The notes beneath the pieces were generated by a model that was not told where the DNA came from, ran no database searches, and was given only the letters and a program-made list of their open reading frames with translations. 64,000 bases of DNA from Candidatus Uhrbacteria bacterium RIFCSPLOWO2_01_FULL_47_25. GTDB taxonomy: Bacteria; Patescibacteriota; Patescibacteriia; GWA2-46-9. The DNA is taken from the NCBI GenBank assembly GCA_001791325.1, contig MGEK01000004.1, forward strand, positions 8,566-72,565. The letters run 5' to 3'. This document shows positions 19,601-32,148 of the stretch, piece after piece; the first letter of the stretch is position 1, and each line of letters begins with the position of its first letter. Both the position numbers and the translations under genes were made by a program.

Positions 19601-21356
19601 CGGAATAATCAGTCTTACGGGGGGCACATTTGAGCAGCGAGTAATCGCTAACAAAAATTTTGGTCCAACGACCGCCAGCACCAGCTGGACGTTTAGCACG
19701 CTCATTTTTTCTAACAGCAATGCTGGAGCCACGGAAATTATGATTTTTACTGAACCCTGTAGTACTTGCGGCGTGACCGTTAGCAGTATTCTTTATATTG
19801 GAAAATCTGGCGATGCGGTTGACGCGACAACTACTCTAAATGCTGAAGACAAAATTTGGACACTATCGGGCACGGGCGGCGATCCTTTCCAGATTTTGGC
19901 CTCACCAGCGGGCGATTTAGCGCCAGCTGCTGCCACTTTTGTTTACACTGGCAATAACGAGGCGGGTAATACCACAGTGCAGTCCGAAACCTACATTGGG
20001 TTAGAGTTTAACAACGGTTCAGAAATATATGCCTTGGAAGGGGAAACTAGTGGCAGCACGACAGTGACAATTACTGCCGGCACTTTGAATCTTAATGGAC
20101 AAACATTAACTTCTAACGGCAATCTCATTGTCAATGGTACGTTGTCAGGAGCAACTGATGTTATGGTGAATGGCAATGTTACTGGCAGTGGCATAGTAAC
20201 CTTGACCGGCGGTACGTTTGAGCAGGTTGTGTTTACCGACAAAACGTTTGGCTCAAGCTCTGGTACGAATACGTGGACTTTTAGTGGTTTGAAATTTAAT
20301 AACTCTAGCGGTGCGGCTGGCCGCACGATTACGCCAAACGCCGGTACGGGCGATGTAGTGGTTTCTGGAACACTGACGCTTGGCGACAGCGGAACGCAGA
20401 TAATTACCTTTAATAATGATACTAATGATAGAGTCTTTGACTTGAATGGCGCGATTCTTATATCAACCCAAGGCTCCTTTACTGCTTCAAATAGTGTCGC
20501 GTTCTCTGTAGCAAGTAATTTTACCAATAACGGCGCCTTTGCCCATTCCAGCGGTACCGTGACATTTGACACGACAGGCATAAGCATTCTCGCTGGCACC
20601 GGTTCGCCCGCCATAACTTTTTTCAATTTCACTTCAACCACGGCCGGAAAAACAATCAATTTTACAGCCGGACAAACTTTTAGAATAAACGGCAAATTGA
20701 CTATTTTGGGCGCTGACCTAAATCCGGTTAATCTTCATTCAACTTCATCTCCGACGCTATGGACAATAAATCATCAAGGAACAGAAAGCGTGCAATACGC
20801 CGATATAGACGATAGCGCTTGCGACGGTAGTAGCAACATCAGTCTTGATAGCACGTCCACCGGCACTAACGATGGGACTTGTTGGCTTTTCCCGAGTTTG
20901 TCTTTCACCATCAGTCCGACAAGCGTTAGTCTTAATTTAACATCCCCGACTTTTACTACGACGGCCACTAATACATTGACCGTGACCGCGCGAGCTGAAT
21001 TTGGCTATACTTTGACTGCGTATGAAACTGGCGTGCTAACACATACGGCATATCCGAGCAAGACCATAGATGATTGGACTGGCATCCATCCAACTGGTTC
21101 GGCTTGGTCAAGTACTTGTATCGCGGCAAGTGAATGCGGTTTTGGTTATAATACGAGCGACGCTGATATTGGCATGAGTACTAATTATTCCGCTTTTGCC
21201 GGTTTATTAGACGCGCCCGGCGACGCCGTGGCGAGTTCCTCGGGACCAGTCACTGGCGAGGCCACCACCATCACCTACCGCTCTTCAGTTAGCGCCATTC
21301 AAGCCGCTGGGCCATATCAGACGACCATTATATATATAGTGACGCCACAGTTCTAG
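7686..21356 (+). CDS. giant (4556 aa) cell-surface protein: basic N-terminus plus signal-anchor TM, acidic linker, Ig-like domains, long Thr/Gly-rich parallel beta-helix-type repeats, WxL-like C-terminal domain (likely ATG start at 7695)
   Basis: Single uninterrupted ORF. TM GVIGTVVVVLFISSLF; repeated DFTWGVLVVN.../DYTWGVLAFN... domains; many repeats of ...TFTxxGTxTxSGTVTFDG...; C-terminus shares W...GFGY...AGxYxxTIxYIxTPxF with ORF 23614..24882. Confidence 0.8.
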   Translation: MVKMSKLLGAKKRKNPAHHGRNKPVARGQRQETRAKKRLKERVLGVIQRQVKLRELKVLARRGVIGTVVVVLFISSLFVRAEPNPLLVHEVIYPQSCRGTWQGMNNIFTQELDARAEADDFNKTNSAMPALGEPTVAAVPGKEEYNAFTVSLPILDQQSNVDTLMDQPSDTDQDLQLIIPPIIPSQEESPVENAPSQNTPIEDNDNNSENKSLENAPSEQVLGEEDKADDSSQPVTDEQLSTEKSNEEQEQPLSPPSQPQPQEPLDTQLFPEPETKPLAPPDDTLPMPTEPPATEPSGAEPSSTDQPIINFNNLLDKLINKALAEEDAILNTDTNASTADTNGAETKVDSNSEADGFSVEDIVKSVAEKIGDIVSDSADKVSEIIAPITAEPVDIQNLTPGTPSLETKPEAEDSPSLLGTLFDAVGQAISAITDLISPLPPSVLEAPSFAIQDSNILKTENGTMACADFTPPATTQIEQASLGLSYTLKDQSPLPNEQSGFLWAEYTQDRQNWMILSSIEDTNSSVESAYHLFNFPPDFDAGRISETIVRLRWFGKYDEPEIFIDSLWLDVARLGDSEQEKPSELKTAKKDFAAFEDPVFNLSFDPQVPLSAKRGVIFDNSQSQSIIEKYKERYKQWLESWANFIIQKPLSFARNALAQSPSADQATPNDAALWHETNLDISARLLTKDYGPTDIVPELLRLNSGQFKISLAARAFRPGAYILQTTIQKGESVQTLEQDFTWGVLVVNTDQSVYKTGDEASFFFGVLNDKGETACDATLEAKITDPAGQAVTLATADGTIKSSSSCAKNSVTDTPDYGATYHTTTAGTYALAVTATTVEGSHTITDTFSAQDDLPYRVRRRGASRIYPLAKYEMSIEVTARNDFKGTVTERVPLDFIVTPSSNFVITAVEDAQALTWDVALQAGESQNFTYEYNAPDISPAIFHLGEFSLTASGADQPIFIEPNQWEIASDGLDPVIIHAPEVALRPEVRGKAERLAREVPLPENVPHHTRSMEGNFESRKMNRPVSLALAREQVPPNAKISVVDAYGKEITDGIVVNTEEDTMTVDINPDAKGMRPGKYTLYVTDPDTEEVLAEQDYTWGVLAFNPDYAVYPPNTTANLSFGVLDDAGRVLCDAALVAIIADPSGNETVLGTGDGSIRVNEECYQMEDTQKPDYEANFDTTIPGIYQMTIIAKSKNGERTLNDSFSVDPNAAFYLKRTGPTRTYHPATYNYSLDFTAKEAGTYDITEKVPASFTITGDGFTVTEQDQTKILHWQVTAVAGETKTLAYRFKGPPLSPYLFLLGAAEVKTSSPNQTWVEPREWMLASDNACSSDVDPSGNWNTAGSWTSCGGVVPTTTDTVAIVDGDTITIDSAPNSVISVNINLGGTLNGGSATLNINNTAASGTSFTNSGTWTSSTGTVNFGSDVALTMLSGSFIGSNNFNNITHTFTPTAARTYTVGAAVEIGGNWTSTPGSTSNARDLTINLSGATTVTGTLTLDGRGCNNGAADGTASTTQFSTNGQNLTVRAIVVDGITNGDGCRFTTANSSVVTFTGTGTTTLFTLGQTGSTALMTTGTTTEWDVTSVSGTPTLFSTSGTTITVHILKIAASATIVNLGAAFTIDANSGNKLWINSGILNQENRTITAGASATLQIDSGGTLCLGGTTASTTANCASGATQATAQAMPSFTTYTFDAASTVSYLSNANVVFSSTPNYGNLTLNPVLISTNRTYTPGGAMTINGDFTINPNESFTDTPSLTVDPLNNYTVASGKTTTITKTNAATSVLILPLAVSQYLSTGKLVIASGGTLNGAISSATIIIKDTGAAFTNSGTYTYGLTKVSYTNTTSSTVLGMTGTSGTNGYYDLDINGTGGTHTLGANTTANNATTITAGTLNTSAASSFTLTTSTLSITGGLTANASFINITGAGAAFTKSGTFTYGTSTVEYTNATGATVLSMNNVGSTNAYYTIWVANGSHTLGGDIRVYGDLASVSGTLSDATDSVTVVGSVTCFAAFACGTITFTGGTFTQIVAANQTFGTNASDSTIDWTFNNLTFDSSSGSNTITLGNIGLTGTGQIIVNGTLTIGTGGTMTTLQADTYDRIIDANIVTITSKGILFASSSALFTVAGAFTHTSGGTFTHSNGIVTFDGTAALNFVNNTTTFYDVVVATGVTRTITAGASNVLTIANTLTINGTGRMVSFSSEQLYLTKNGETPLIVGGATAVNGLTLVVYRPAGTATNVAATTYNYLYILPTAATTLTLLGATTVNVNLLVTGPGAGIVATLDTNGQTLNVVGAVVAGFGTPGAVIIGASTVDVDGDVLIWDVSGSYISMTSGSLNVGGNWSNGANSVFTAGTGTVTFDAADAGNTIATGGTDSNHDFYDVIFDNSAGSWIFQTNDVLISNNLTVTNTSATGVNASVNVTVNGSVTGAGVINITNSVTFTQKVAAVSKTFGTTSGANDWTFYNLAFENSSGPRTIDTNGGSGQIIVSNTLTIGNADDSTVTTLDNNTTNDRIIDANIVTITSKGSLTASSSALFTIAGDFTNNGTFTHSSGTVTFDGASANINIPDAGITFYKVIIDISSPNAKTLVNGATIAVMTVANTLTVNGTGALTSGGGNEQVKLTKDGDTGGVPLTVGGATAVSGVAAFIYAPAGAATTVTGTTYSSLTINPTAATTLTLGEAVITSGALYVFGPNSTTAATLNTNNYDLTVGGALFVGAWYLGYADGVVNLGSSTVTVSGDVWIMQDTGSELDAGSSTLTVGGNWVWFSAFSSGGIFTAGTSTVKFNAGDAGNTIDAGAGAFNNVIFDNAAGSWTFQTTAATISGDLTMTAATQVNASVNVTVNGNVSCGVTCGTINITNAVTFTQSVDAAKNFGTSVVDDATVWTFSSLTFTATTDTITTSSNGTGNINVTGTLTISGSTTLDAGDRNWVLSGAGTPFARTGTFTGNTSTFNYTSTTGVDALSSAAMTGSNAYYNLTINSSGDTFTAGVAVAATNKVLVTAGILAMGANALTAGSTGVTDSGQISVASGHSLTSSGTVTIVSSAASTASCLGGTTLPGCTGAVGTLTLSTLVIGDGATTMTTAFGGTTPSMAISTLLNITTNATFTAGTGSTITLSAAGTPITRDGNFRCGTSTVAYTSSTGVDALSSAAMTGDCTTGNAFYNLVINGTNNFPVTNDIIVTNNLTVTAGSLTGTSNVTANSNVACGVTCGSITLTGGTFLQSVGDAKNFGTNVDEDDTWTFNNLTFTATTDTITTSSNGTGNINVTGDLTISGSTTLDAGDRTFVLSGSSGSPFVKTGTFTYNTSTIKYTGTTVTVLSMTGTGGSDGYYNLTVDGTGPFNAGGAIVANNDVTVTSGTLAMGANALTVNGGDISVSGIFSQTAGSATTVVTTGSIGGAGTTTFGELNIGTGSSDQTTTAGGDFTVSGVLTTVSSSSTNNFDASSKTITLSGTGTPFVNNETFTYGTSTIKYTGSDTTTVLAMTGTGGTNGYYKLITQGTGPFNAGGSITANNNINITSGTFAVGGNTLIGANITVDGGSLSATTSGGKIKISGGGDLSVTSGSIVTADVATPVEITSSDTATPTYVGVSVTGASSTINIPELDIDYLKSTGFVVGASVTVTAMDKVRWGGSGGTWNGQAAVGEVLLDATSLTKTLDGHVFPNTWASQGGSDCNVRANTDGTVTMTNFSGTYSGEDYDCDNGGTVTWVSGLSIAGTVYTDEGSTRMTTGPTVRVKVDGAGDFSDVADTTNCPGSSPCGEYLITGVTPTDSGAVLTIYLDDETENATTVTISSGLDLTGIDLYQNRVIVRYETGSSITNTNLDQYDWVNEGDANIDGDIGFQVTAGALTVSKDRELHIWTGKTFTPGGSVTTNTGGSGVGGDVHIVGIFTATTTESHSVGGSWTDTGTFNPASSTVTFAATSGTKTITSTGSSFYNLIINGSGGEFQPQDAMVVTNDLTITAGTLSGTQNVTVNGHAVGTAGIISLTGGTFEQRVIANKNFGPTTASTSWTFSTLIFSNSNAGATEIMIFTEPCSTCGVTVSSILYIGKSGDAVDATTTLNAEDKIWTLSGTGGDPFQILASPAGDLAPAAATFVYTGNNEAGNTTVQSETYIGLEFNNGSEIYALEGETSGSTTVTITAGTLNLNGQTLTSNGNLIVNGTLSGATDVMVNGNVTGSGIVTLTGGTFEQVVFTDKTFGSSSGTNTWTFSGLKFNNSSGAAGRTITPNAGTGDVVVSGTLTLGDSGTQIITFNNDTNDRVFDLNGAILISTQGSFTASNSVAFSVASNFTNNGAFAHSSGTVTFDTTGISILAGTGSPAITFFNFTSTTAGKTINFTAGQTFRINGKLTILGADLNPVNLHSTSSPTLWTINHQGTESVQYADIDDSACDGSSNISLDSTSTGTNDGTCWLFPSLSFTISPTSVSLNLTSPTFTTTATNTLTVTARAEFGYTLTAYETGVLTHTAYPSKTIDDWTGIHPTGSAWSSTCIAASECGFGYNTSDADIGMSTNYSAFAGLLDAPGDAVASSSGPVTGEATTITYRSSVSAIQAAGPYQTTIIYIVTPQF

Positions 21357-21360
21357 TGAA

Positions 21361-21516
21361 GAATATGGAATATTGAATATGGAATATAGGGATGTGCTGT
21401 GAAGAATATGGAATATTGAATATGGAATATAGGGATCGTTGATTTGAGAAAATTAATTGAAGAATATAAAATTTAGAATATAGGGATCGAACGGTGGAGA
21501 ATATTGAATATACATT
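21361..21516 (+). repeat. promoter-proximal block: (GAATATN)4 - 15 bp - (GAATATN)4 - spacer - GAATATAAAATTTAGAATATA - GGGATCGAACGGTGGAGAATATTGAATATACATT. It is near-identical to 26901..27056
   Basis: Direct comparison: 21389-21516 is identical to 26929-27056; the first heptamer arrays differ at 2 positions. Confidence 0.85.
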
Positions 21517-22953
21517 ATGAAAAGTGAGATTAAGTCATTTAGAGATTTGGTGGTATGGCAAAAAGCATCTGCTTTGGCAACTTTGCTGTATAAAGTTACG
21601 GAAAATTTTCCTAAAACAGAAATATATGGAATAACAAGTCAGATGCGACGGGCAGCGGTATCGGTTTCTTCTAATATTGCCGAGGGATTTAAAAGAAATT
21701 CAAAAAAAGAAAAAGTGCAGTTTTATTCAATGGCTTATGGGTCTCTTTCGGAATTGGAAAGTCAAATAGAAATTTCTTTTCGTCTGGAATATTTAACAAT
21801 TACTAACTACGATCAAATTTTATCCGCAATCAACGAAGTTTCTCGACTCCTAGACGGTATTATTAGGTCCACTAATAGAAATTATCAAAGTAGGTTTGAT
21901 GTTCTCGTTGCTGTATCTATATTCTATATTCTATATTCTATATTCCCAATCTCACCGGCTAATGCTGGTGAAATTGGTCTGGCTGTCACAAGAAACCGCT
22001 TTGATATTGAGATGCTCTCGGGCGACACATACAAGGGTGATTTAGCCGTGTATAATAAATCAGCAGACGCCGCCTTGCCTGTGCACGTGGAATTGGCGCT
22101 CTGGAACATTAAAGAGGATTCTGAAGATATTGAGTTTGTTCAAGCGGAGTCATTGCTTAATGCCACACGTTGGTTTGAGGTTCAGCCGAAAGATTTTATT
22201 TTAGACCAAGGCGGCGATAGGCAAATTAAGTTTGAGATCACGGCTCCCAAAGACGCTTCGCCCGGAGCGTACTTGGTAATGATGCGTTTTCAGGCGGTTT
22301 TGCCGGAACATTATTTTTTGAAAGAAGGTCCAAGATTTTTGCCCGAGATTGGCGTTTTGTTTTTCATCAATGTCAGAACACTGGCCATTGACAGCGCGGC
22401 AGAAAATAATCGCTTAAATATCGTTTCATTTGAACCCGAAGGGACGCATCGCTTAACTTTTATTGACCGTTACGTGGTAAGTCCTGCCAATGCTGGCGTA
22501 TTTGACGAAGCAGTAAAAAAATTAGTGGCTAAAATTGAAAATAAAAGCATCTATTATTTTAAAGCCTCCGGCTTTGTCGTTATTAAAAACTTGTTTGGCC
22601 AGACAGTGTCACTCATTAAAATTCCCGAAAAATTTTTACTTCCCAACCGTACTCGCAGCATCCCCATCACCGTTATCACACCACCAACGGAACAATCAAA
22701 ATCCAATATTCTATATTCCATATTCTATATTCTTCAACAACAAACATACCTCGGCCCCTACACCGCGACACTAACGCTCAACGTTCCATCAAGCAATGGG
22801 GGAGTAGAGCCAATTTCAGAATCAATCAATTTCTGGATTATCCCATGGAAGTTTTGGTCGGCCGTTATTATTATAGCGTTGTTAATCGCGTTCATTATAT
22901 TAAAATTGCGGCGTCGGCTTCGGCCGGCACTAAGTGCGCTGATCGGACGCTGA
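21517..22953 (+). CDS. four-helix-bundle (23S rRNA IVS protein / Avd-like) domain fused to TM segment, DUF916-like surface domain and C-terminal TM anchor
   Basis: N-terminus FRDLVVWQKA...FPKTEIYGITSQMRRAAVSVSSNIAEGFKRNS matches the TIGR02436/PF05635 signature. Downstream WFEVQPKDF...VPKDASPGAYLVMMRF and the terminal hydrophobic helix + RRRLR resemble CscA/DUF916 proteins. Confidence 0.7.
   Translation: MKSEIKSFRDLVVWQKASALATLLYKVTENFPKTEIYGITSQMRRAAVSVSSNIAEGFKRNSKKEKVQFYSMAYGSLSELESQIEISFRLEYLTITNYDQILSAINEVSRLLDGIIRSTNRNYQSRFDVLVAVSIFYILYSIFPISPANAGEIGLAVTRNRFDIEMLSGDTYKGDLAVYNKSADAALPVHVELALWNIKEDSEDIEFVQAESLLNATRWFEVQPKDFILDQGGDRQIKFEITAPKDASPGAYLVMMRFQAVLPEHYFLKEGPRFLPEIGVLFFINVRTLAIDSAAENNRLNIVSFEPEGTHRLTFIDRYVVSPANAGVFDEAVKKLVAKIENKSIYYFKASGFVVIKNLFGQTVSLIKIPEKFLLPNRTRSIPITVITPPTEQSKSNILYSIFYILQQQTYLGPYTATLTLNVPSSNGGVEPISESINFWIIPWKFWSAVIIIALLIAFIILKLRRRLRPALSALIGR
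21918..21945 (+). repeat. (TATATTC)4 heptamer array inside the CDS at the 4HB/TM junction (inverted relative to the upstream GAATATN arrays)
   Basis: Read directly; encodes IFYILYSIF. Confidence 0.85.
22705..22732 (+). repeat. second (NATATTC)4 heptamer array inside the same CDS, just before the C-terminal TM anchor
   Basis: AATATTC TATATTC CATATTC TATATTC. Confidence 0.8.
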
Positions 22954-23030
22954 ATATGTGGAACGCTGAATTTACGCTGATAACGACGCTGATCGGACGC
23001 TGAATATGTGGAACGCTGATATTTACGCCG
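22936..23030 (+). repeat. array of about 8 ACGCTGA/ACGCCGA heptamer units (two 45-bp direct repeats) overlapping the last codons of the preceding CDS and ending 1 bp before the GxxExxY start
   Basis: GCGCTGATCGG ACGCTGAATATGTGGA ACGCTGAATTT ACGCTGATAACG ACGCTGATCGG ACGCTGAATATGTGGA ACGCTGATATTT ACGCCGAATGG. Confidence 0.85.
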
Positions 23031-23031
23031 A

Positions 23032-23463
23032 ATGGATATGAACAAGGTTAAGGATTTCTTGTATGAAAAGGAGTCGTATCAGATTAGAGGAGCGTGTTTT
23101 GATGTTTATAAAGCATTTGGTGGAGCATTTAAGGAAAAAATAGTGGATCGGGCGCTTACTAAATCTCTGGCTAAACGCGGATTAAAAGTGGACGAACAAA
23201 AACGTATAAACATTTTGTATGATGGTGAAAAAATTGGTACCTATATTCCCGACAAAATCGTAAATGATGCTATTATTTTAGAAGTGAAGGCAAAAAGTTT
23301 TATCACCAAAGATGATATAGATCAATTTTGGAAATATTTGAAAGGGTCAGACTATAAATTAGGATTCCTTGTAAATTTCGGTCCGGCAAAATTAGAAATA
23401 AAAAGAGTGGTATATGATTCAGCCAGACCAGTTCGGCGTGTTTCGGCGTCCTTATCGGCGTGA
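23032..23463 (+). CDS. GxxExxY family protein (PD-(D/E)XK nuclease-like)
   Basis: YEKESYQIRGACFDVYKAFGGAF...LEVKA...FLVNFGPAKLEIKRV: the family's diagnostic motifs. Confidence 0.75.
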   Translation: MDMNKVKDFLYEKESYQIRGACFDVYKAFGGAFKEKIVDRALTKSLAKRGLKVDEQKRINILYDGEKIGTYIPDKIVNDAIILEVKAKSFITKDDIDQFWKYLKGSDYKLGFLVNFGPAKLEIKRVVYDSARPVRRVSASLSA

Positions 23464-23506
23464 ATCAGCGTTTATATCAGCGTATTCATCAGCGTAAGTC
23501 GGCGGT
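23428..23506 (+). repeat. array of TCGGCGT x3 + TCAGCGT x3 + TCGGCGG (reverse complement of the upstream ACGCTGA/ACGCCGA array), overlapping the GxxExxY 3' end
   Basis: TTCGGCGTG TTTCGGCGTC CTTATCGGCGTG AATCAGCGT TTATATCAGCGT ATTCATCAGCGT AAGTCGGCGG. Confidence 0.85.
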
Positions 23507-23613
23507 ATTATGGTTATCCACAGGCGGGCTTGTGTCAATTCTATTACTTTTATGATATAATTCATTCAATATTAATAAGTCCTAATTATTAAAAATCGTA
23601 ATTCATTCTAAAT

Positions 23614-24882
23614 ATGGTCAAAAAACTACGCAAATATCAACGATTTACAGTAGTTTACGTTTTAATTTTTTCAATAATAACTTTCTTTTCGGGCGCGCAT
23701 ATTTGGGGGCTGTTGCCGCCAGCTCGTGCGGCTGCTCTCACCAGTGTGAAAGACGTGCTCTCGACGTCAGAGTCGGGCGCCAACGCGAACCATACAATTC
23801 AGTTCGTAACTCCTTCAGGAGTACTACTCTCAACCCATACAGTGACACTCACATTTGACGGCTCACCATTGTTTGACGTTAGCGGCCTTGATGAAGATGA
23901 TGTGGATATGAGCGAAGACACTACGGGTGATATTGGCGATTGTGGCTCATTTGCTACGGCTAAGACCACTATAGCTGGAGCACCTGACGGCACCAACTGG
24001 GGTGTTACTTTCTCCGGTCAGACCATTGTATTCACACATCCTTCTGGTGATGATAACCAAGACATTGCCGCCGGTGCGTGTGTTCAGATAAGGATCGGCG
24101 ATGGTACTGTGGCTATGGACTCAGGCACGGGCGATGCTCAGATTAATAATCCGGCTGGTAACGGCGATGGTGTGGCTGAAATTGAAACAATTGACATTGC
24201 CACCGATAGCACCGTAGACGACAGCGGCACAGCTATGACCGCCACCGTAGAGGGTGTGGCCGTGAGTGTTACTGTTGATGAAAGTTTAGCCTTCTCTATA
24301 GCGGTCGTAACATCCGGTAACTGTACAGAAGGCGGAGGCGGGACCGCGGTTACCACGACAGCAACAACCGTGCCGTTTGATAGTATCGCGCTTGCCGTGA
24401 ACACTTTTTATAGAGGTTGCCATGATTTGACGGTGAGCACTAATGCGGCAAACGGCTATACCACAACTGTCGAAGAAAATAAAAGTTTAATTCGCACCGG
24501 TACTGATGGGGGCGACAAGACAATCAATGATGCTATTTGTGATGCGGGTGACGACTGTACCTCGGCCATTGGTGCTGGGACGACGTCGCCTTGGGCCACG
24601 GCCACTGCCAATCACGGTTTTGGCTATACATGCAGTGGCAGCGCTTGTGACGCTGCTTTCGCTACAGCTGCTGAATTTAATGCCTTTCCTTGCCGTAGTT
24701 CAACAGCGTCAGATTGTGATCCTGTTGATGGACCACTGGCTCTGGCTACCCCGATTTCGTCAGGAGGAGTTCCCGTCAGTGCTCAAACTTCAAGAATTGT
24801 ATACAAGCTTTCGTTTTCCGCCACTCAACCGGCTGGAACTTACGGTAACACTATTACCTATATAACAACCCCGACATTTTAG
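23614..24882 (+). CDS. secreted surface protein with WxL-like C-terminal domain (CscB/CscC-like)
   Basis: Signal peptide/TM at N-terminus; C-terminal ~100 aa align with the giant protein's C-terminus (HGFGY...AGTYGNTITYITTPTF vs CGFGY...AGPYQTTIIYIVTPQF). Confidence 0.55.
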   Translation: MVKKLRKYQRFTVVYVLIFSIITFFSGAHIWGLLPPARAAALTSVKDVLSTSESGANANHTIQFVTPSGVLLSTHTVTLTFDGSPLFDVSGLDEDDVDMSEDTTGDIGDCGSFATAKTTIAGAPDGTNWGVTFSGQTIVFTHPSGDDNQDIAAGACVQIRIGDGTVAMDSGTGDAQINNPAGNGDGVAEIETIDIATDSTVDDSGTAMTATVEGVAVSVTVDESLAFSIAVVTSGNCTEGGGGTAVTTTATTVPFDSIALAVNTFYRGCHDLTVSTNAANGYTTTVEENKSLIRTGTDGGDKTINDAICDAGDDCTSAIGAGTTSPWATATANHGFGYTCSGSACDAAFATAAEFNAFPCRSSTASDCDPVDGPLALATPISSGGVPVSAQTSRIVYKLSFSATQPAGTYGNTITYITTPTF

Positions 24883-24959
24883 TTGAGCATTGGACGGTAT
24901 TGAATAATTTAATATCATTATCAACTCCGCCCACATGATACTATAGCGGTAATGTTGTC

Positions 24960-25904
24960 ATGAAAATTCGCTACTCGCCATCATCCTTTATTGCTTTTTT
25001 AGTCGGTGGATTAACGGTGGGCGTGATCATGTCGCCAACCGCAGTGATGGCGCAAGCAGTAAAAACTCTCACTATCTCACCCCTCACTTTTGAACTAACC
25101 GCCAATGCGGGCGAGACTATATCTAATGTCTTAAAGATATATAACAATAACGATTTTAATATATCAGCCAACATTGATGTTGAAGATTTTGCTCCGGCCG
25201 GAGAGACCGGTCAAGCAGTGGTTACCGAACCGCAGGAGGATAATACCTATTCTTTGGCTCGTTGGATTACGGTTGAGGAAGAAACATTTGAAATAGAGGC
25301 ACAAAATTTTCGGCCGATTACTTTTCATGTTAACGTTCCCCTGAACGCCGAGCCGGGAGGGCACTACGGAACAGTACTTGCTTCTATCGCCGATGGTGGT
25401 GGCGAGGGCGGAGTTAGCGTGGCATCTAAAGTAGGCGCGCTTTTACTGCTTCAGGTGGCTGGTACGGCTAAAGAGTCTCTAAACGTCGCCAGTATGGGAG
25501 CGCCGAATTTTTCCGAATACGGGCCCGTAACCATTGCCACGAGATTCCAAAATACTGGCACTGTCCATTTAAAGCCGCGGGGGTTTATTTTAGTGCAAAA
25601 TATGTTTGGCCAAGAAACAGCCAAATTAAATTTAGACCAGAAAAATGTGTTGCCTAACTCGGTGCGTAGGATAGAATCAAAATTAGACGAGAAATGGCTA
25701 TGGGGTAAATATACGGCGACCTTGACGGCGATTTACGGTTCAACCAATGAGCCACTTTCTTACACCACAACTTTTTGGGTGATCCCTTGGCGGGTGAGTT
25801 TGGCTGTCGGCCTCATACTATTGATCGTTTTCATTATTCTTTATCGGGCTCGTCGGCGGATATTTTTGGCGCTCAAAATTCTCTTAAAGGGTGAACATAG
25901 TTGA
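24960..25904 (+). CDS. DUF916/DUF3324-like cell-surface protein with C-terminal membrane anchor (CscA-like)
   Basis: Signal peptide; WITVEEETFEIEAQNFRPITFHVNVPLNAEPGGHYGTVLAS; C-terminal TM LAVGLILLIVFIILY + RARRR. Paralogous to the C-terminal half of 21517..22953. Confidence 0.55.
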   Translation: MKIRYSPSSFIAFLVGGLTVGVIMSPTAVMAQAVKTLTISPLTFELTANAGETISNVLKIYNNNDFNISANIDVEDFAPAGETGQAVVTEPQEDNTYSLARWITVEEETFEIEAQNFRPITFHVNVPLNAEPGGHYGTVLASIADGGGEGGVSVASKVGALLLLQVAGTAKESLNVASMGAPNFSEYGPVTIATRFQNTGTVHLKPRGFILVQNMFGQETAKLNLDQKNVLPNSVRRIESKLDEKWLWGKYTATLTAIYGSTNEPLSYTTTFWVIPWRVSLAVGLILLIVFIILYRARRRIFLALKILLKGEHS

Positions 25905-25974
25905 AGAATATAGAATACAGAATCTAGAATAGAGAACTTGGAACATGGAATTTAAAACATGGAATTTAAAACAC
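25905..25974 (+). repeat. ten tandem 7-bp units (AGAATAT AGAATAC AGAATCT AGAATAG AGAACTT GGAACAT GGAATTT AAAACAT GGAATTT AAAACAC) between the CscA-like gene and the dockerin gene. The dockerin gene start codon lies within the array
   Basis: Strict 7-bp periodicity read directly. Confidence 0.8.
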
Positions 25975-26894
25975 AGATTATCATTTTTTGCGGTTGTGTT
26001 GTCGTTGGTTCATTTTTCGTCATAGCGAGCAACCACGTTATTGCGCAATCAAATTCGCAGGGCGTAGGCGTTTCCATTACTATTGAGCAAACAACAACGC
26101 CGCCTCCCACTCCGCCGCCTAGCGGTGGCGGAGGAGGTGGTGGTGGAAGTACAGTTATTGTTCCATCGCCAACGGATATCGCCACATTTGTAATGAAAGG
26201 TAAGGCTTATCCAAAAGCGATAATAACGATACTGCGCAACGGCGCAGTTACTAAAACGCTGATTGCTGGAAACGACGGATTATTTGAAGCGACCATCTCC
26301 GGATTGCCTGCTGGTTTGCAGACTTTTGGCGTGTACGCGCAAGATACTGAAGGGAAAAAATCCGTCACTTTAAGTTTTACCTTAAGCCTATTGGCTAATA
26401 TGACGACCACGCTGGAGGGCTTAATTATACCGGTAACCATAGAAATATCTTCGCCGGTCGTAAATCAAGGTAATCCATTATTTATATATGGTCAGTCGTT
26501 TCCGGAAAGCAATATCAGTCTTTTTATTCAATCAAAAGAAGTAGTTAAAACGACAGCCACTAAGCCGAGCGGCAATTGGCGATATGAATTGGATACGGCG
26601 CCATTGGATTTGGGCGATCACGCGGTTCGCGCGAAAGCGCAGGCCTTAACCGGCGAGCAGAGTGAGTTTTCAGAAACCAAATTTTTTCGGGTAATACCGA
26701 AAGGAGCTCATGGGACGCCCGGCAGTTGTCCTGCGGATTTGAATGATGATAATCGTGTAGATATTACTGATTTAAGTATTTTATTGTATAATTGGGGCAC
26801 GCCAAAGAATACTCGCGCTGATTATAATAAGGATGGCAGGGTTGATATCGTTGACTTTTCAATTCTGCTTTACTATTGGGGAACGTGTGTATAG
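25959..26894 (+). CDS. secreted Ig-like-domain protein with C-terminal type-I dockerin module
   Basis: Signal peptide; Pro/Gly linker; duplicated calcium-binding segments DLNDDNRVDITDLSILLYNWG and DYNKDGRVDIVDFSILLYYWG. Confidence 0.7.
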   Translation: MEFKTQIIIFCGCVVVGSFFVIASNHVIAQSNSQGVGVSITIEQTTTPPPTPPPSGGGGGGGGSTVIVPSPTDIATFVMKGKAYPKAIITILRNGAVTKTLIAGNDGLFEATISGLPAGLQTFGVYAQDTEGKKSVTLSFTLSLLANMTTTLEGLIIPVTIEISSPVVNQGNPLFIYGQSFPESNISLFIQSKEVVKTTATKPSGNWRYELDTAPLDLGDHAVRAKAQALTGEQSEFSETKFFRVIPKGAHGTPGSCPADLNDDNRVDITDLSILLYNWGTPKNTRADYNKDGRVDIVDFSILLYYWGTCV

Positions 26895-26900
26895 TTGTAA

Positions 26901-27056
26901 GAATATGGAATATAGAATATTGAATATAGGGATGTGCTGTGAAGAATATGGAATATTGAATATGGAATATAGGGATCGTTGATTTGAGAAAATTAATTGA
27001 AGAATATAAAATTTAGAATATAGGGATCGAACGGTGGAGAATATTGAATATACATT
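26901..27056 (+). repeat. second copy of the promoter-proximal block (heptamer arrays + 128 bp identical to 21389-21516)
   Basis: Direct comparison with 21361-21516. Confidence 0.85.
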
Positions 27057-28595
27057 ATGAAAAGTGAAATTAAGTCATTTCGAGATTTGATAGTTTGGCA
27101 AAAATCTTCCAATTTAGCAACTTTAATATATGGCATTACTAACGATTTTCCCAAGAGCGAAATGTATGGTTTGACCAGTCAAATGCGCCGAGCTGTTGTA
27201 TCAGTTTCATCTAACATTGCAGAAGGCTTCAAACGAAACTCTAGAAAGGAGAAGGTACAATTCTACACAATGGCCTATGGTTCTCTTTCAGAATTAGAAA
27301 GCCAGATTGATATTTCAAAAAATCTTCACTATTTATTGGAAAGCCAATACCAAACAATAATTGAGGCAATTAACGAGGCGTCAAGGCTTTTGGACGGTAT
27401 TATTAGAGCCACTAACAGAACTCACAACGATCGTTTTTTTTCGCCTGCCATCTCTGTACTACTTGCCGTTGCGATCTCTGTATTCTATATTCAATATTCT
27501 ATATTCCCAACAGCGCCTGCCGGCGCTGTTTCGTCCGTGCGGCTTTTTTTTATTCCGGAAAATTCCGAGGTCGTTGCCGGTGATATTATAAAAAGTGACA
27601 TTTGGGTAGACACGCAGGGAAATACTATCAATGCGGTGGATATTAGTGTTTCTTATGATTCAATGGTTGAGCTTTTAAGCGCGGAGAAAAATGATTCAAT
27701 TTTGAATTTATGGGTTGAGGAACCGAGCTTTTCCGATACTACGCGCCGCGCTAAATTTACCGGCGGCCGTACTGGCGGGTTTGAGGGTCGGGGAATAATT
27801 GGGCAGTTGTATTGGAGAAATGAAAACGCCGGGGGAAAAGCAACTTTAGGCTTTGATGAGTCGTCTGTTGTTTTATTAAATGATGGATTGGGTACTCCAG
27901 CGGAGCTAGAGAGACGACAATCGGATTATAATATATTGGCCAAGGGAGAGGGTTTATTGAATTTATCTTCGGCCTCGCACCCGGATGAAAATAAATGGTA
28001 TAATCAGCCGTTTGTGCGTTTAAGTTGGCCGACAATAGAAGGCGCGATTTACAGCTATTTAGTTACGAGGGATCCGGCTCAACTACCAGATGACACGTTG
28101 GACGAGCCAGTAGGCAATATTAAGCTAAGCGACCTGACGGACGGCGTATATTATTTTAAGCTTAAACAAAAAAAACTCGGCGAAGAAGGGTGGTCCAGTG
28201 TTGTTTCCAGACAAATTAAAATTGACAAAACGCCGCCGGAATTTATTGAGGCAAAGATTTCACGTGATTCGGAACTTGTTCAAAATAAGTATTTCGCGAG
28301 CTTTGCCGCTAACGACAAGGCATCTATAGCTCGTTATGAAATAATTGAAGGGGATAGCGCTCCGGAGCCGATATTGCAGCCGCCATTTATTTTAAAAAAT
28401 CAAGATAGAAGCGTGGCCGTTACAATTAGAGCCATTGACGCGGCCGGTAATTACAAGGACATAATTATACCGGCCCTGACTTGGTGGCAAAGGCCGTCAA
28501 TTATTTTATATGTGAAAATAGGGCTTATTGTCGGGCTAGCTCTAATTGCAGCGGTGATAATAATTGTGATTATCAGGAGAAAAAAATCAATATAA
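27057..28595 (+). CDS. four-helix-bundle (Avd/23S-IVS-like) domain fused to TM, cohesin-like domain, Ig-like domains and C-terminal TM anchor
   Basis: N-terminus FRDLIVWQKSSNLATLIYGITNDFPKSEMYGLTSQMRRAVVSVSSNIAEGFKRNS. Cohesin-like INAVDISVSYDSMVELLSAE...LWVEEPSFSD. (TATATTC)4 at 27479-27506. Terminal TM + RRKKSI. Confidence 0.65.
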   Translation: MKSEIKSFRDLIVWQKSSNLATLIYGITNDFPKSEMYGLTSQMRRAVVSVSSNIAEGFKRNSRKEKVQFYTMAYGSLSELESQIDISKNLHYLLESQYQTIIEAINEASRLLDGIIRATNRTHNDRFFSPAISVLLAVAISVFYIQYSIFPTAPAGAVSSVRLFFIPENSEVVAGDIIKSDIWVDTQGNTINAVDISVSYDSMVELLSAEKNDSILNLWVEEPSFSDTTRRAKFTGGRTGGFEGRGIIGQLYWRNENAGGKATLGFDESSVVLLNDGLGTPAELERRQSDYNILAKGEGLLNLSSASHPDENKWYNQPFVRLSWPTIEGAIYSYLVTRDPAQLPDDTLDEPVGNIKLSDLTDGVYYFKLKQKKLGEEGWSSVVSRQIKIDKTPPEFIEAKISRDSELVQNKYFASFAANDKASIARYEIIEGDSAPEPILQPPFILKNQDRSVAVTIRAIDAAGNYKDIIIPALTWWQRPSIILYVKIGLIVGLALIAAVIIIVIIRRKKSI

Positions 28596-28601
28596 ACATA
28601 T

Positions 28602-29996
28602 ATGCGAGGGTGGGCGCTTAAATTATTCGTTTCAATTTGCCTAATAACGCTAACGAGTGTCACTGAAGTAAATGCTGCTGGCACCGCTTCTCTATCCCTC
28701 TCGCCGTCACAGGGCGCGTTTATTGTTGGCAACTCTTTTGATGTTTCCATATTTGTTAATACCAATGGCAATGATATTAATACGATAGAGGTTAATGTAA
28801 AATTTTCGCCAGATACCTTGCAAATAGTCAGTCCCAGCGCCGGTCAATCATTTATTTCGGTATGGATTACCCAACCTACGTTTTCCAATGAGCAGGGGAC
28901 TATTCATTTTGCCGGAGGGCTTCCTTCGCCAGGCATTAATACCACGGCTGGACTTGTTTCCACTATAACATTTAGGGCAAAAGCTCCGGGCACTGGCACC
29001 ATAGAAATTTTACCTAACTCAAAAGTTCTCTTGAACGACGGAAAGGGAACAAATATTTTAACTTCAGTTACCAAGGGCTCATACAGTCTAACTTTAGCGG
29101 CTCCTGGCGGTCCAGAAATTTCGTCCTCTACTCATCCTGACCAAAACGCCTGGTATAAAAACAATAATCCGGTTTTTAGCTGGACACGAGGTTTAAGCGC
29201 GGCGCAACCGGTTGAAAATATGACGGAATTTAGCTGGTGGTTTGATCAGGATCCAAGAGGGTATGCTGATAATAAAGCTGACGGAACGGGCTTAAACGCT
29301 TCATATAGCGACGTTCAGAGTGGTATTTGGTATTTCCACGTAAAAGGCAAAATTAGCGATTTATGGGGGCAACAAAGCTCATACGCGGTGCGTATAGATA
29401 ACACGCCGCCAGCCGCTTTTACGCCAAACATATCGCCGGACGGATCAAAGCCAAATGAGCGGCGCATCGTGTCATTTACTACTACTGATCAGCATTCCGG
29501 CCTTGATCATTACGAAGTTAAAGTATTGCCGCTTGATGAAAATACTGGCGCGGAGCCATTTTTTACTGAACATACGAGTCCGTGGCTGACCACTTCTTTG
29601 GGTATTGGTCGCTATCAAATAATTGTGCGCGCTTTTGACAAGGCTGGGAACTGGCAGGATGGGACTTTGACAATCACGAATGAACCGCCGCCGCCAACCT
29701 TAAAAGAGAAATTCAATCAGGGTATTATAGTGAATGGAAGATTCATTGCCTGGTGGATGATTCTTACCGGCAGTATTATTTTATTGCTGTTACTGCTGCT
29801 CATTTTGATATTGTGGCGCCGCGCGCATGAGGATGTTTCAGAGCAAATACAAGAGACTTTGGAAAAAGCGCACGAGCGCTTGCGGCGCCAGCATGGAAAA
29901 ATTGCCGCTGAACTTAAAGAAGAAGAGGAGGTTAAAGAAGTGTTAAGTCAGGAATTAAAAGATTTAGAAAAGGACGATCACGATAAGGGAGAGTAG
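28602..29996 (+). CDS. cohesin-like-domain surface protein with C-terminal TM anchor and charged coiled-coil tail
   Basis: Signal peptide; IEVNVKFSPDTLQIVSPSAGQSFISVWITQPTFSNEQGTIHFAGGLPSPG...TITFRAKAPGTGTIEI resembles the cohesin fold signature; THPDQNAWY domain; TM LTGSIILLLLLLLILILW. Confidence 0.55.
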   Translation: MRGWALKLFVSICLITLTSVTEVNAAGTASLSLSPSQGAFIVGNSFDVSIFVNTNGNDINTIEVNVKFSPDTLQIVSPSAGQSFISVWITQPTFSNEQGTIHFAGGLPSPGINTTAGLVSTITFRAKAPGTGTIEILPNSKVLLNDGKGTNILTSVTKGSYSLTLAAPGGPEISSSTHPDQNAWYKNNNPVFSWTRGLSAAQPVENMTEFSWWFDQDPRGYADNKADGTGLNASYSDVQSGIWYFHVKGKISDLWGQQSSYAVRIDNTPPAAFTPNISPDGSKPNERRIVSFTTTDQHSGLDHYEVKVLPLDENTGAEPFFTEHTSPWLTTSLGIGRYQIIVRAFDKAGNWQDGTLTITNEPPPPTLKEKFNQGIIVNGRFIAWWMILTGSIILLLLLLLILILWRRAHEDVSEQIQETLEKAHERLRRQHGKIAAELKEEEEVKEVLSQELKDLEKDDHDKGE

Positions 29997-30020
29997 CGGG
30001 TAGTGGCAGTTTTGAGTTGA

Positions 30021-30126
30021 AGAATATAGAATATTGAATATGGAATATGGGTATTGAACCGCGAAGAATATAGAATTTAGAATATGGGTTTGAAATTAGA
30101 AGATATAGAATTCAGAATATAGGTGT
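30021..30126 (+). repeat. heptamer arrays (AGAATAT AGAATAT TGAATAT GGAATAT; AGAATAT AGAATTT AGAATAT; AGAATTC AGAATAT) upstream of 30127
   Basis: Read directly; same family as 21361-21431. Confidence 0.8.
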
Positions 30127-31527
30127 ATGAAAAGCGAAATTAAATCGTTTAGAGATTTGATTGTGTGGCAGAAGGCAGCCGCCCTTGTGTTGATCGCTAT
30201 ATTCTATATTCTATATTCTATATTCCCAATCTCGCCAGCTAACGCTGGCTCTGCCTCACTCTCATTGGTTTCCTCAAAGCGAACTTACACCGTCGGCGAA
30301 AATGTCGCGGTTAGCGTTATTTTGAGCACGGGAGATGTTAGCATTAACGCGGCAAGCGCTACGATTACGTTTGACCAAAAGAAGCTCTCAGTAGTAAGCG
30401 TTTCTCGTTCCGGTTCAGTCTTCACTTTATGGGCGGAAGAACCAACCTTTTCAAATTCTCAAGGAGTAATTAGTTTGGGCGGAGGGTTGCCAACGCCGGG
30501 TTTTTCCGGTAGGGGAGCGATTATTATCAGAATTACTTTTCGGGCAAAAGAAGAAGGCACAACGGCTGTCAGATTTGCCGGCGGAACGGTTTTGGCGAAT
30601 GACGGACTGGGCACTAATGTTTTAGCAGGACTCACTGGTCTTGATTTAACTATTCAGGGAAGGGCGGTCGTTACAACGCCGCCGGAGAAACCCCTAGAAA
30701 GAGCGCCGGTTGTTACCCCACCAGGTCAAGTGCCGTTGGCGCCGGTTATTTTGTCGCGTACGCATCCTGACGAGTCTGGTTGGTATCGCAATGCCCAGCC
30801 GGGTATTATTTGGGAATTACCGTCTGATGCTAAGGGAGTAAGTGTTAGTATTGATCAAAACGCGAATGGTGATCCCGGCACAACCTCTGAAGGGCTATTT
30901 AACTTTTACAGCGCCAAGGAGCCGCTTAAAGATGGCGTTTGGTACGCCCATGTCAGGGTAAGCAATAGTCGCGGTTGGGGGGCGATTGGTCATTACCGCT
31001 TAGCTATTGATACCGCGCCGCCGATGATTACAACGGCAAAATTGGTGTTTGAAGCAGCCAGAACCAAGGCCATAGAATTTGCCACTAGCGACCCCTTATC
31101 ATCAACCGACTATGTATCTATTTTAGTCAATGGAGAACAGGTCGCCTCGCAAGCTAGCTCGCCATACACCTTACCGTCATTAATTCCCGGCAATCATGTG
31201 ATTACAGTAATAGCCTATGATAAAGCAGGCAATAAAGCGTCCCAGGATCTCTATTTGAGCATTTTGAGCCAAGAAATATCAAGCGCGCCAAGAACAAGTC
31301 TTTTAATCATTATCATTCTTATTCTCGCCTTGATTTTGCTGGTTATATTTATCATCTGGCACTTCTATGAACGCCATCATCGCCGGGCCATTTTGGAAGA
31401 ATTAGCCAAAACCAGGCGAGAGCTTAAAGGAATGTCGCAAAAGTTACGCTCACTGGAGGGTAAATTAAATGCCCATGCTAATGCAAATGTCAGTGAAAAG
31501 TCCCAAACAACAATTAAAAAAATATAG
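30127..31527 (+). CDS. cohesin-like-domain surface protein whose N-terminus retains only the first ~19 codons of the 4HB module (MKSEIKSFRDLIVWQKAAA) joined directly to the (TATATTC)4-encoded TM segment
   Basis: Compare MKSEIKSFRDLIVWQKAAALVLIAIFYILYSIFPISPANAG with the 21517 protein; heptamer array at 30198-30225; cohesin-like ATITFDQKKLSVVSVSRSG...LWAEEPTFSNSQG. Confidence 0.65.
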   Translation: MKSEIKSFRDLIVWQKAAALVLIAIFYILYSIFPISPANAGSASLSLVSSKRTYTVGENVAVSVILSTGDVSINAASATITFDQKKLSVVSVSRSGSVFTLWAEEPTFSNSQGVISLGGGLPTPGFSGRGAIIIRITFRAKEEGTTAVRFAGGTVLANDGLGTNVLAGLTGLDLTIQGRAVVTTPPEKPLERAPVVTPPGQVPLAPVILSRTHPDESGWYRNAQPGIIWELPSDAKGVSVSIDQNANGDPGTTSEGLFNFYSAKEPLKDGVWYAHVRVSNSRGWGAIGHYRLAIDTAPPMITTAKLVFEAARTKAIEFATSDPLSSTDYVSILVNGEQVASQASSPYTLPSLIPGNHVITVIAYDKAGNKASQDLYLSILSQEISSAPRTSLLIIIILILALILLVIFIIWHFYERHHRRAILEELAKTRRELKGMSQKLRSLEGKLNAHANANVSEKSQTTIKKI

Positions 31528-31578
31528 GTCGTAAGATGTCAGATAGTAGTTAGGAGTGTTTGTAATTAATATCAACCA

Positions 31579-31610
31579 GAAACTATCATACTATATAGTA
31601 TGATAGTTTC
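31579..31610. repeat. perfect 32-bp palindrome GAAACTATCATACTAT|ATAGTATGATAGTTTC, with an imperfect second copy at 51294-51325
   Basis: Checked base by base. Confidence 0.75.
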
Positions 31611-31698
31611 CGCACAAGAGGTGCTAGAAACACCCACAATGAACATGGGCATTCGCGTGCCTTGACTGTATCGTTAGGTTTTTGTAATATGTATGAAT

Positions 31699-31802
31699 CC
31701 CGCACCATGGCTTAACGGCCATGGTATCTGATTAACACTCTTCGGGAATTTTTTAGACATTATGACCCACGCTGATGCGTGGGGTATCCTGCATGGTGCT
31801 GG
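31699..31802. mobile_element. MITE-like element family 2 (TIR ATCCCGCACCATG / CATGGTGCTGGAT), copy E1
   Basis: Terminal inverted repeats; internal CACGCTGATGCGTGG hairpin shared with the copy at 52163. Confidence 0.55.
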
Positions 31803-31833
31803 ATGAACTTAAACTCGCATTATAAATAAAGAT

Positions 31834-32148
31834 ATGAATACAGCCGTCATCAAAACTGGGGGTAAACAATATTTGGTTAAGCCTGACCAACGACTTAAGG
31901 TTGAAAAACTAACCGGTGAAGTCGGCGCGGAGGTAGTTTTTAGCGACGTTTTGTTGGTTGCCAATAATGATCAGCTTATAGTCGGTCAACCAGTGGTAAA
32001 AGAGGCAAAAGTGACAGCCACGATTGCCAAGCAGGGTAGAGGCAAAAAAATTATCGTGCAAAAATATAAACCCAAAGTTCGTTATCAAAGGAAGCGCGGT
32101 CATCGTCAACCGTTCACAGAGATCGTTATTGGAAATATAGAGTATTAA
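31834..32148 (+). CDS. rplU: 50S ribosomal protein L21
   Basis: AVIKTGGKQYLV...KVTATIAKQGRGKKIIVQKYKPKVRYQRKRGHRQPFTEI. Confidence 0.9.
   Translation: MNTAVIKTGGKQYLVKPDQRLKVEKLTGEVGAEVVFSDVLLVANNDQLIVGQPVVKEAKVTATIAKQGRGKKIIVQKYKPKVRYQRKRGHRQPFTEIVIGNIEY

Follow-up and report, generated by a model that had tools for sequence, protein, structure and literature searches.

Identical leaders ahead of two diverged four-helix-bundle genes in Candidatus Uhrbacteria: probable recent copying of an arm between gene cassettes resembling rRNA intervening sequences

In a 64,000-nucleotide stretch of the genome of Candidatus Uhrbacteria bacterium RIFCSPLOWO2_01_FULL_47_25 (contig MGEK01000004.1; the whole stretch is referred to here as the window), two open reading frames (ORFs) that begin with a four-helix-bundle (4HB) domain are preceded by leaders that share an identical block of 146 bp. 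This block is probably the upstream arm of a small, seemingly selfish gene cassette that resembles the intervening sequences (IVSs) of 23S rRNA, recently copied between two such cassettes 5.5 kb apart. A non-reciprocal transfer of approximately 170-190 bp, by gene conversion or unequal recombination, would have overwritten one leader with the other; its left end would lie in a heptamer array and its right end in the 11 conserved codons that open the 4HB domain. The cassettes sit ahead of consecutive surface-protein genes in an operon of this ultra-small member of the Candidate Phyla Radiation (CPR)/Patescibacteria, and all features described below lie on the forward strand.

The identical block and its edges

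Ungapped alignment of the window with itself at an offset of 5540 pairs positions 21382-21527 with 26922-27067 without a single difference (146/146). In copy 1 the block takes in the last part of heptamer array A1, then A2-A4 with the spacers, and 11 nt at the start of the 4HB ORF; copy 2 has the same sequence in assemblies L002, L003, and L173. The original prediction, made from the window alone, had reported identity over 128 bp (21389-21516 and 26929-27056), which holds as part of this longer exact run. Its near-identical region of about 156 bp is also real but was underestimated, as near-identity spans 21357-21549, about 191 bp at 97%, where the left edge matches at 21/25 positions and the right edge at 20/22. 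Past the block, identity falls to 71% (21550-21700) and 65% (21701-21888), and is noise beyond approximately 21950; the coding regions are thus more diverged than the leader, as had been claimed, and a sliding-identity check excludes an equal identity of both.

The two 4HB domains share 75-77% of their amino acids, with a proportion of synonymous differences (pS) of 0.78-0.81, which is saturated, a nonsynonymous divergence (dN) of 0.19-0.21, and a ratio of nonsynonymous to synonymous divergence (dN/dS) well below 1; identity at third codon positions is 39%. The domains are old paralogues under purifying selection, with zero differences in the leader block. Even with a per-site identity of 90%, the chance of 146 identical bases is approximately 2e-7.

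Both ends of the tract lie inside homologous sequence (an array on the left, codons 1-11 on the right), which fits gene conversion or unequal recombination and not a discrete insertion; identity is perfect, it is bounded by homologous but diverged sequence, and the flanks are much older. The selective homogenization by gene conversion proposed in the original prediction, here judged to be recent, gains support from this lack of any difference in 146 bp beside saturated synonymous sites. A small, promoter-bearing mobile element similar to a miniature inverted-repeat transposable element (MITE), inserted independently into both leaders with no gene conversion, is an unlikely source of the identity. 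Orthologous leaders without the block, the promoter-like site within it, and arrays that occur alone (e.g., 25902-25952) would suit such an element, but the boundaries of the block fall in homologous sequence, the block has neither terminal repeats of its own nor a target duplication, and there are only two copies in 64 kb and none in the other loci compared. Inverted arms are present, and the copies in the window are diverged outside the block.

The promoter-like site consists of TTGAGA (21444-21449) and TAAAAT (21467-21472) separated by 17 nt, and short orthologous leaders have no such element. Spread of the block may have delivered this element; the earlier suggestion that a promoter unit was replaced as a module keeps some plausibility, with the site lying in the block. 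The description of the block as a promoter or leader is apt for this site but incomplete, in that the block is one arm of an inverted-repeat cassette. GGTGGAG (21493-21499), formerly put forward as a Shine-Dalgarno sequence, is doubtful in this role; it ends 17 nt ahead of the ATG, too far for a canonical site.

Independent assemblies of the locus

At least 24 contigs, drawn from NCBI, ENA, and JGI assemblies, contain the locus. In k141 assemblies, contigs break at the block or overlap there by 141 bp; breaks and overlaps exactly at the block are what a genuine repeat, as opposed to a collapsed one, produces. That a collapsed or mis-joined repeat produced the identity, as the original prediction had considered, is extremely unlikely and was rejected: the repeat is at least as long as common k-mer sizes, several contigs terminate in it, and one assembly differs by a 58-bp unit, but long contigs from all three sources, produced by different assemblers from different samples, cover both copies with distinct flanks and identical block sequence, and 146 bp is less than the typical span of paired reads.

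The 58-bp difference is an additional array-plus-spacer unit in leader 2, found only in GCA_001791385.1 (L001 15383-15598 and L172 381-600, equivalent to window 26897-27056). Its composition is a hybrid of arrays A3 and A2, and it would be either a population variant that arose by unequal crossover or an assembly difference. Two 5676-bp megahit contigs (L005 and L006), which correspond to window 21387-27062, have identical first and last 141 bp, both being the block; with the block at both ends, such contigs could be miscalled as circular by circularity detectors.

Cassette architecture in the window

The heptamer pattern GAATATNGAATATNGAATAT, with up to 2 mismatches, has 25 matches in the window versus 0 expected, all in 21.3-30.2 kb. 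The window holds three 4HB cassettes, one of which has lost its ORF through an in-frame deletion, and a GxxExxY/PDDEXK_3 cassette that has its own repeats. All three 4HB copies share one layout, in which GAATATN arrays are followed by the 4HB ORF and then by reverse-complement NATATTC arrays; forward arrays start 0-22 nt past the stop codon of the preceding gene in 4/4 cases. The strongest predicted duplexes between arm pairs of the 4HB cassettes have free energies (dG) of -34 to -44 kcal/mol (z -6 to -9).

The forward arm of cassette 1 (21357-21516) begins 1 nt after the stop codon of a 4556-aa ORF and contains arrays A1 (21357-21393), A2 (21400-21436), A3 (21457-21488), and A4 (21499-21516). 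It is followed by the first 4HB domain (21517-21888; PF05635 23S_rRNA_IVP/TIGR02436, E 1e-37; PDB 2GSC, E 9e-21) and a reverse arm (21912-21950), in which (CTATATT)x4 at 21917-21945 is translated as VAVSIFYILYSIFP. The arrays are predicted to form duplexes with the reverse arm at dG -15 to -34 kcal/mol (z -3.9 to -7.1). ORF1 (21517-22953) thus comprises the 4HB domain, a predicted signal-peptide core, and a WxLIP-like surface protein with a C-terminal transmembrane anchor.

Cassette 2 has its forward arm at 26897-27056 (arrays 26897-26933, 26940-26976, 26997-27028, and 27035-27056), its 4HB domain at 27057-27428 (PF05635, E 2e-36), and its reverse arm at 27470-27510, with an array at 27478-27506 that is translated as AISVFYIQYSIFP. 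Its first array differs from that of copy 1, and 26907-26929 is complementary to its own reverse arm (27485-27507) at 23/23 positions; the arm duplexes have predicted dG values of -35 and -44 kcal/mol. ORF2 (27057-28595) consists of the 4HB domain, a predicted signal-peptide core, and a cohesin-like surface protein. In the decayed cassette 3 (30018-30230), forward arrays (30018-30123) precede the first 19 codons of the 4HB domain (30127-30183), which are joined in frame straight to the reverse arm (30192-30230; array 30197-30225); ORF3 occupies 30127-31527.

The GxxExxY/PDDEXK_3 cassette (22925-23505) has an ACGCTGA forward arm (22925-23031), an ORF (23032-23463), and a TCAGCGT reverse arm (23420-23505), with repeats approximately 11 nt apart and predicted arm duplexes of -46 and -63 kcal/mol (z -4.1 and -7.4). 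It is kept in position in L007 (7480-8000), where its N-terminus is disrupted.

Four observations look like signs of exchange between arms beyond the block itself: the hybrid composition of the 58-bp unit; the 94% identity of the reverse arm plus signal-peptide c-region between cassettes 1 and 3 despite differing hosts; the closeness of the two 4HB domains, which are 77% identical to one another and approximately 66% identical to their respective positional orthologues; and the CACTAAT-type arms shared by the ORF1 and ORF3 orthologues of one relative.

Complementary arms in relatives

The repeat unit changes between cassettes and the arms stay complementary. Loci L007 and L008, which have the same synteny past the giant ORF and encode PDDEXK_3-fused orthologues of ORF1, carry CACTAAT repeats upstream and ATTAGTG repeats downstream, the latter encoding ILVSISLLLVLISGA; both the ORF1 and ORF3 orthologues of a relative sampled in SRR22387949 also have CACTAAT-type arms. 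At the positional orthologues of cassette 2 (L090 and L091), the leader is only 47-55 bp of AGAACAN, the reverse arm is NTGTTCT, and the block is absent. The cassette repeats of L009 are ACGAAT/ATTCGT.

A survey of 80 genome loci, mostly from Patescibacteria, with 81 scorable 4HB genes compared the 200 nt upstream with 160 nt around the end of the domain. Own arms share a mean of 11.65 inverted 7-mers; direct sharing gives 3.6, arms taken from separate loci 3.75, and windows displaced by 400 nt 2.6-3.2. In 72/81 genes a clear pair of ungapped arms is present, with many different repeat units, and the period is 7 or 14 in 53/55 arms. Median distances are 6 nt from the end of the forward arm to the start codon and 12 nt from residue 120 to the beginning of the reverse arm. 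Stops in all three frames occur in 31/55 forward arms versus 9/55 reverse arms, a moderate asymmetry only. Standalone 4HB cassettes lie on the same strand as, and directly upstream of, genes of all kinds.

In the corresponding survey of PDDEXK_3 (80 metagenome loci, 68 genes), arms share a mean of 8.9 inverted 7-mers versus 3.1 in controls. Repeat spacing, taken from distances between core k-mers because simple period detection over 90-nt flanks is too insensitive, varies with the cargo. For 4HB, 117 spacings are 7 nt and 32 are 14 nt; for PDDEXK_3, 82 fall in the range of 10-12 nt, with a peak at 11.

Such cargo-specific spacing (7 versus about 11 nt) hints at an interaction between protein and repeats, and the arrays could be operators at which a DNA-binding factor (perhaps the 4HB protein) acts, with purifying selection holding every base of the leader; constraint of this kind had been offered as the alternative to homogenization. 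In its favor, the arrays show a high degree of order, four genes of the cluster have them upstream, and the block has a promoter-like site. However, constraint is very unlikely, because the spacers and synonymous positions are identical as well, the third leader of the same genome (30018-30123) is diverged and shorter, and the orthologous leaders of L090 and L091 use another heptamer and lack the block; it also leaves the reverse-complement arrays unexplained.

Do the arms act as RNA or as DNA?

The arms could form a stem in the RNA, serve as DNA ends in mobility, or be bound by the cargo protein. Several results weigh against recent copying between IVS-like cassettes, or against a particular role of the arms in it. 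The cues for direction of transfer conflict: A2 pairs best with the reverse arm of cassette 2 (together with GGGATCG it forms 33 continuous pairs, including three G.U), and A1 equals A2 only in cassette 1. No transposase, integrase, or recombinase was found among the window ORFs scanned (up to 40.1 kb), and no target-site duplication was noticed on inspection of the window cassettes, so the case for mobility consists of orthologous sites at which cassettes are present, absent, or swapped. Heptamer number does not differ among independent consensus assemblies, including contigs that encode identical proteins, although a consensus hides minority variants. Across 72 arm pairs, G.U and A.C mismatches number 53 versus 43, which gives no signal of a sense-strand RNA, and for the 611-nt cassette 1 the predicted fold does not exceed shuffles in stability (z -0.25), a significant hairpin fold (z -4.1) being confined to cassette 3, which is short and decayed. 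Finally, leader cleavage, transcription starts, and RNA processing are all proposed from sequence.

These results also bear on a regulatory RNA hairpin or phase-variation device, in which heptamers of the 5' untranslated region (UTR) would pair with the reverse arm, with RNase III processing and slippage. This device, which is partly compatible with copying of the arm, is a minor possibility, and there is a similarly small likelihood that the identity of the leaders reflects selection for a particular hairpin, as in a system of the Haemophilus influenzae hmw1A type. The forward-reverse duplexes are predicted to be strong, all three mismatches of A2 against the reverse arm of cassette 2 are G.U, the hosts are adhesin-like surface proteins, and the frame moves by 1 with each heptamer unit. 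Hairpin and IVS both have a precedent (PMC12721329; PMC4990558). The constant array length among assemblies and the lack of an overall G.U excess speak against such a device, as does the position of the stem in fused genes, where its cleavage would part the host ORF from its sole start codon.

The reverse arm as signal-peptide core

Signal peptides were judged by sequence inspection and hydropathy (predicted cleavage points are marked by an arrow). The reverse arm of ORF1 reads ...VAVSIFYILYSIFPISPANA↓GEIGLAVT, with predicted AxA cleavage after A150 (21964-21966, PISPANA↓GEIG), and that of ORF2 reads ...AISVFYIQYSIFPTAPAGA↓VSS, with predicted cleavage after A157 (27525-27527, PTAPAGA↓VSS). In ORF3 the start of the 4HB domain and the reverse arm together form the predicted signal peptide, MKSEIKSFRDLIVWQKAAALVLIAIFYILYSIFPISPANA↓GSASL. 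The host parts of ORF1 and ORF2 beyond the 4HB domain are not homologous (WxLIP-like versus cohesin-like, E 0.11).

The fused leaders fit the pattern of Sec-type signal peptides in their hydrophobic core, AxA, and aligned mature end; the n-region is abnormal, being a folded domain of approximately 125 aa. A hydrophobic segment at about residues 126-146 is found in 65/65 fused metagenome proteins and 17/17 fused genome loci. It is either followed by AxA or, as in 7-10 of the metagenome proteins, preceded by a type IV prepilin motif, G↓FT(L/M)(I/V)E. The host part of ORF1 occurs in three states among its orthologues: fused to 4HB (P0004-P0015, approximately 50% identical over the full length), fused to PDDEXK_3 (P0002 and P0003, 80-86% identical in the host part), and unfused with an ordinary signal peptide, e.g., MKKIPFIILTFAISYTFAISSAQA↓AEVGLGV. 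The mature N-terminus aligns across all three, and the presence of PDDEXK_3 in place of 4HB in orthologues so close in their host part is a case of cassette turnover at one site. As judged from these alignments, the cargo domain is a putative N-terminal extension (n-region) of the leader, which is probably removed by signal peptidase or prepilin peptidase, leaving the mature surface protein unchanged.

Whole signal peptides are also encoded by "empty" forward-plus-reverse hairpins or lone arrays (L090 5330-5440, L009 2165-2270, and L009 7630-7830); in L009, forward-type ACGAAT units give the basic n-region (KPRIATNIKRIAAN) and reverse-type ATTCGT units the hydrophobic core. In L086 (2501-5351), a standalone 4HB gene and, after it, a pilin-like gene form a pair that occurs three times in tandem, with the TTCGTAT-type reverse arm read as the pilin leader (MKVKKIRNTRYEIRDTNPGFTLLE).

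PDDEXK_3 cassettes inside housekeeping genes

Fusion is found for 22/66 distinct PDDEXK_3 genes, several of them fused to pilin leaders. In addition, the PDDEXK_3 cargo and both of its arms are read in the host frame inside the essential proteins LepA, RecG, and GatB, and Pfam matches place PDDEXK_3 nested within GTP_EFTU, the RecG helicase core, and GatB_N. The LepA site is the loop before LNLIDTPGH (L143, L149, L160, and L162); RecG is interrupted at two sites, one of which lies between DEQHRFGV and MSATPIPRTL (L144-L148, L150, L152-L154, L157/158, and L169/170); the GatB insertion is in L159, and L117 is a further in-frame case in a housekeeping gene. These insertions support the reading that the window cassettes are insertion modules that persist where translation through them is harmless. 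The forward arm in the housekeeping insertions reads as hydrophilic repeats of the TNAE/TRTDAD type.

Other features of the window

A solo forward heptamer array (25902-25952), with neither cargo nor reverse arm, fills the spacer before ORF 25959-26894. Within 25902-25965, a 14-nt duplication (ACATGGAATTTAAA x2) includes the start codon of this ORF; the orthologous spacer of L090 is only 18 nt. Within ORF1, a reverse-type heptamer patch (22699-22745) encodes SNILYSIFYIL where other orthologues read NSIVYQFKKNSY; the patch, common to P0003 and, in part, P0004, has the look of a short stretch converted from an array.

The 4556-aa ORF and ORF 23614-24882 share, at 20757-21353 and 24283-24879, respectively, a C-terminal module of approximately 150 aa (32% identity, E 5e-9) that ends in ...AGxYxxTIxYIxTPxF, and L007 and L009 have a matching C-terminal end; by its sequence, the module could be a sorting or anchoring domain of the WxL-like surface-protein cluster. 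The 10 ORFs scanned outside the cluster, all before 40.1 kb, are housekeeping genes and a VirD4-like ATPase; the latter is an 852-aa ORF (358-2916) with a coupling-protein ATPase domain of the VirD4/TrwB type, beside housekeeping genes (dnaX and metK).

Family membership and comparison with known systems

Both complete 4HB domains belong to the 23S rRNA IVS protein family, with full-length matches to PF05635 (129 and 125 bits; cut-off 33.8) and TIGR02436 (123 and 120 bits; cut-off 24). The Avd protein of diversity-generating retroelements (DGRs) has a homologous four-helix-bundle fold, and the domains give weak matches to PF22296, NF033474, and the PHROG "Avd protein of DGR"; this identity was rejected because NF033474 scores of 43 and 40 bits are below the equivalog cut-off of 80. 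In keeping with this, no reverse transcriptase was found among the cluster genes or the 10 further ORFs scanned (up to 40.1 kb), and no template or variable repeat was found nearby. An Rfam scan of 20500-32000 (E<=1) gave no match, rRNA included, and hence no known riboswitch, intron, or leader family; PADLOC gave no defense-system match for either cargo (4HB or PDDEXK_3).

The closest likeness is to the IVSs of 23S rRNA in Coxiella and Leptospira. The IVS of Coxiella burnetii contains an ORF of the S23p family and terminal inverted repeats that are cut by RNase III, with 2-3 tandem heptamers (GACAGAT), in strain-dependent number, immediately upstream of the ORF; the ORF decays in some strains, with a 176-bp deletion in one (PMC4990558). 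The same ORF family is found in rRNA insertions of CPR bacteria (PMC11270868). The window cassettes likewise have a PF05635 ORF bracketed by terminal inverted repeats, tandem heptamers directly before the start codon, a weak or absent Shine-Dalgarno sequence, and an ORF prone to decay, as in cassette 3. In contrast to IVSs, which are located in helix 25 or 45 of 23S rRNA, the window cassettes lie between or within protein-coding genes, and their reverse arm is translated, with the ORF fused in frame to a surface-protein precursor. The window elements are therefore built like IVSs in all sequence-level features but the rRNA location, and by definition are not members of that class.

At hmw1A of H. 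influenzae, a heptamer-repeat hairpin in the 5' UTR is processed by RNase III (PMC12721329). The window resembles hmw1A in having heptamer arrays before an adhesin-type gene and a long predicted hairpin with a downstream arm; the right arm at hmw1A, however, is a G-rich UTR segment, the system has no cargo ORF, and its repeat number is demonstrably phase-variable, whereas in the window a gene lies between the arms and array length showed no variation among the assemblies.

Like inteins and other in-frame insertions of homing endonucleases, PDDEXK_3 occurs in frame at conserved sites of LepA, RecG, and GatB, and its tolerance depends on the fate of the host protein. An intein was rejected, as the inserts show only PF05635/PF22296 or PF13366 in Pfam and no Hint splicing domain. 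The cassettes also differ from inteins in being flanked by complementary repeat arrays, and the insert apparently either remains part of the protein or departs together with the signal peptide.

Concerted evolution by gene conversion is known among the 5' ends of paralogous surface-protein genes. The leaders described here share with it a short perfect tract, diverged flanks, and mosaic copies, but the unit that would have been converted is the repeat arm of a cassette and not an antigenic coding region. Heptanucleotide tandem repeats are also known from cyanobacteria as short tandemly repeated repetitive (STRR) sequences. The TAACTGA repeats of Beggiatoaceae are intergenic (PMC4679880). Both kinds of repeat resemble the window arrays in being tandem heptamers concentrated directly upstream of start codons; for neither did the text consulted describe a 4HB or GxxExxY gene enclosed by a matching array in reverse complement. 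Literature searches on 4HB, GxxExxY, and heptamer repeats in CPR bacteria returned no description of such cassettes in protein genes, with a coverage that is incomplete and leaves room for prior description.

Significance of the cassettes

The origin and function of rRNA IVSs, and of the abundant 4HB (S23p) and GxxExxY families, have been open questions for more than 30 years. It is a tentative idea that 4HB and GxxExxY/PDDEXK_3 genes are cargoes of one undescribed class of mobile cassette, for which rRNA IVSs were the niche first seen; in Patescibacteria, cassettes would then be found wherever the insert is harmless. The niches would be intergenic spacers, loops of LepA, RecG, and GatB that are read through, and leaders of secreted proteins and pilins. 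Periodic inverted arrays specific to the cargo (7 versus approximately 11 nt) would bound the cassettes, and recombination between arms would swap and homogenize them. Where the reverse arm encodes the core of a signal peptide, removal of the insert by signal or prepilin peptidase after translation would be the counterpart, at the protein level, of IVS excision by RNase III.

The loci described here present this type of element outside rRNA, in many diverged copies, with orthologous sites at which it is clearly filled, swapped, or decayed. They offer a direct way to test binding of the cargo to its own repeats, the action of the arms as RNA or DNA, and the role of the PD-(D/E)XK cargo as a homing nuclease. 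There are also practical consequences for genome analysis: cassette repeats break assemblies and can mimic circular contigs, and gene calling, signal-peptide prediction, and domain annotation are affected, as proteins labeled "four helix bundle protein" may be precursors of adhesins or pilins. For the host-dependent CPR bacteria themselves, the cassettes would be a source from which surface-protein genes acquire both a start codon and a signal peptide.

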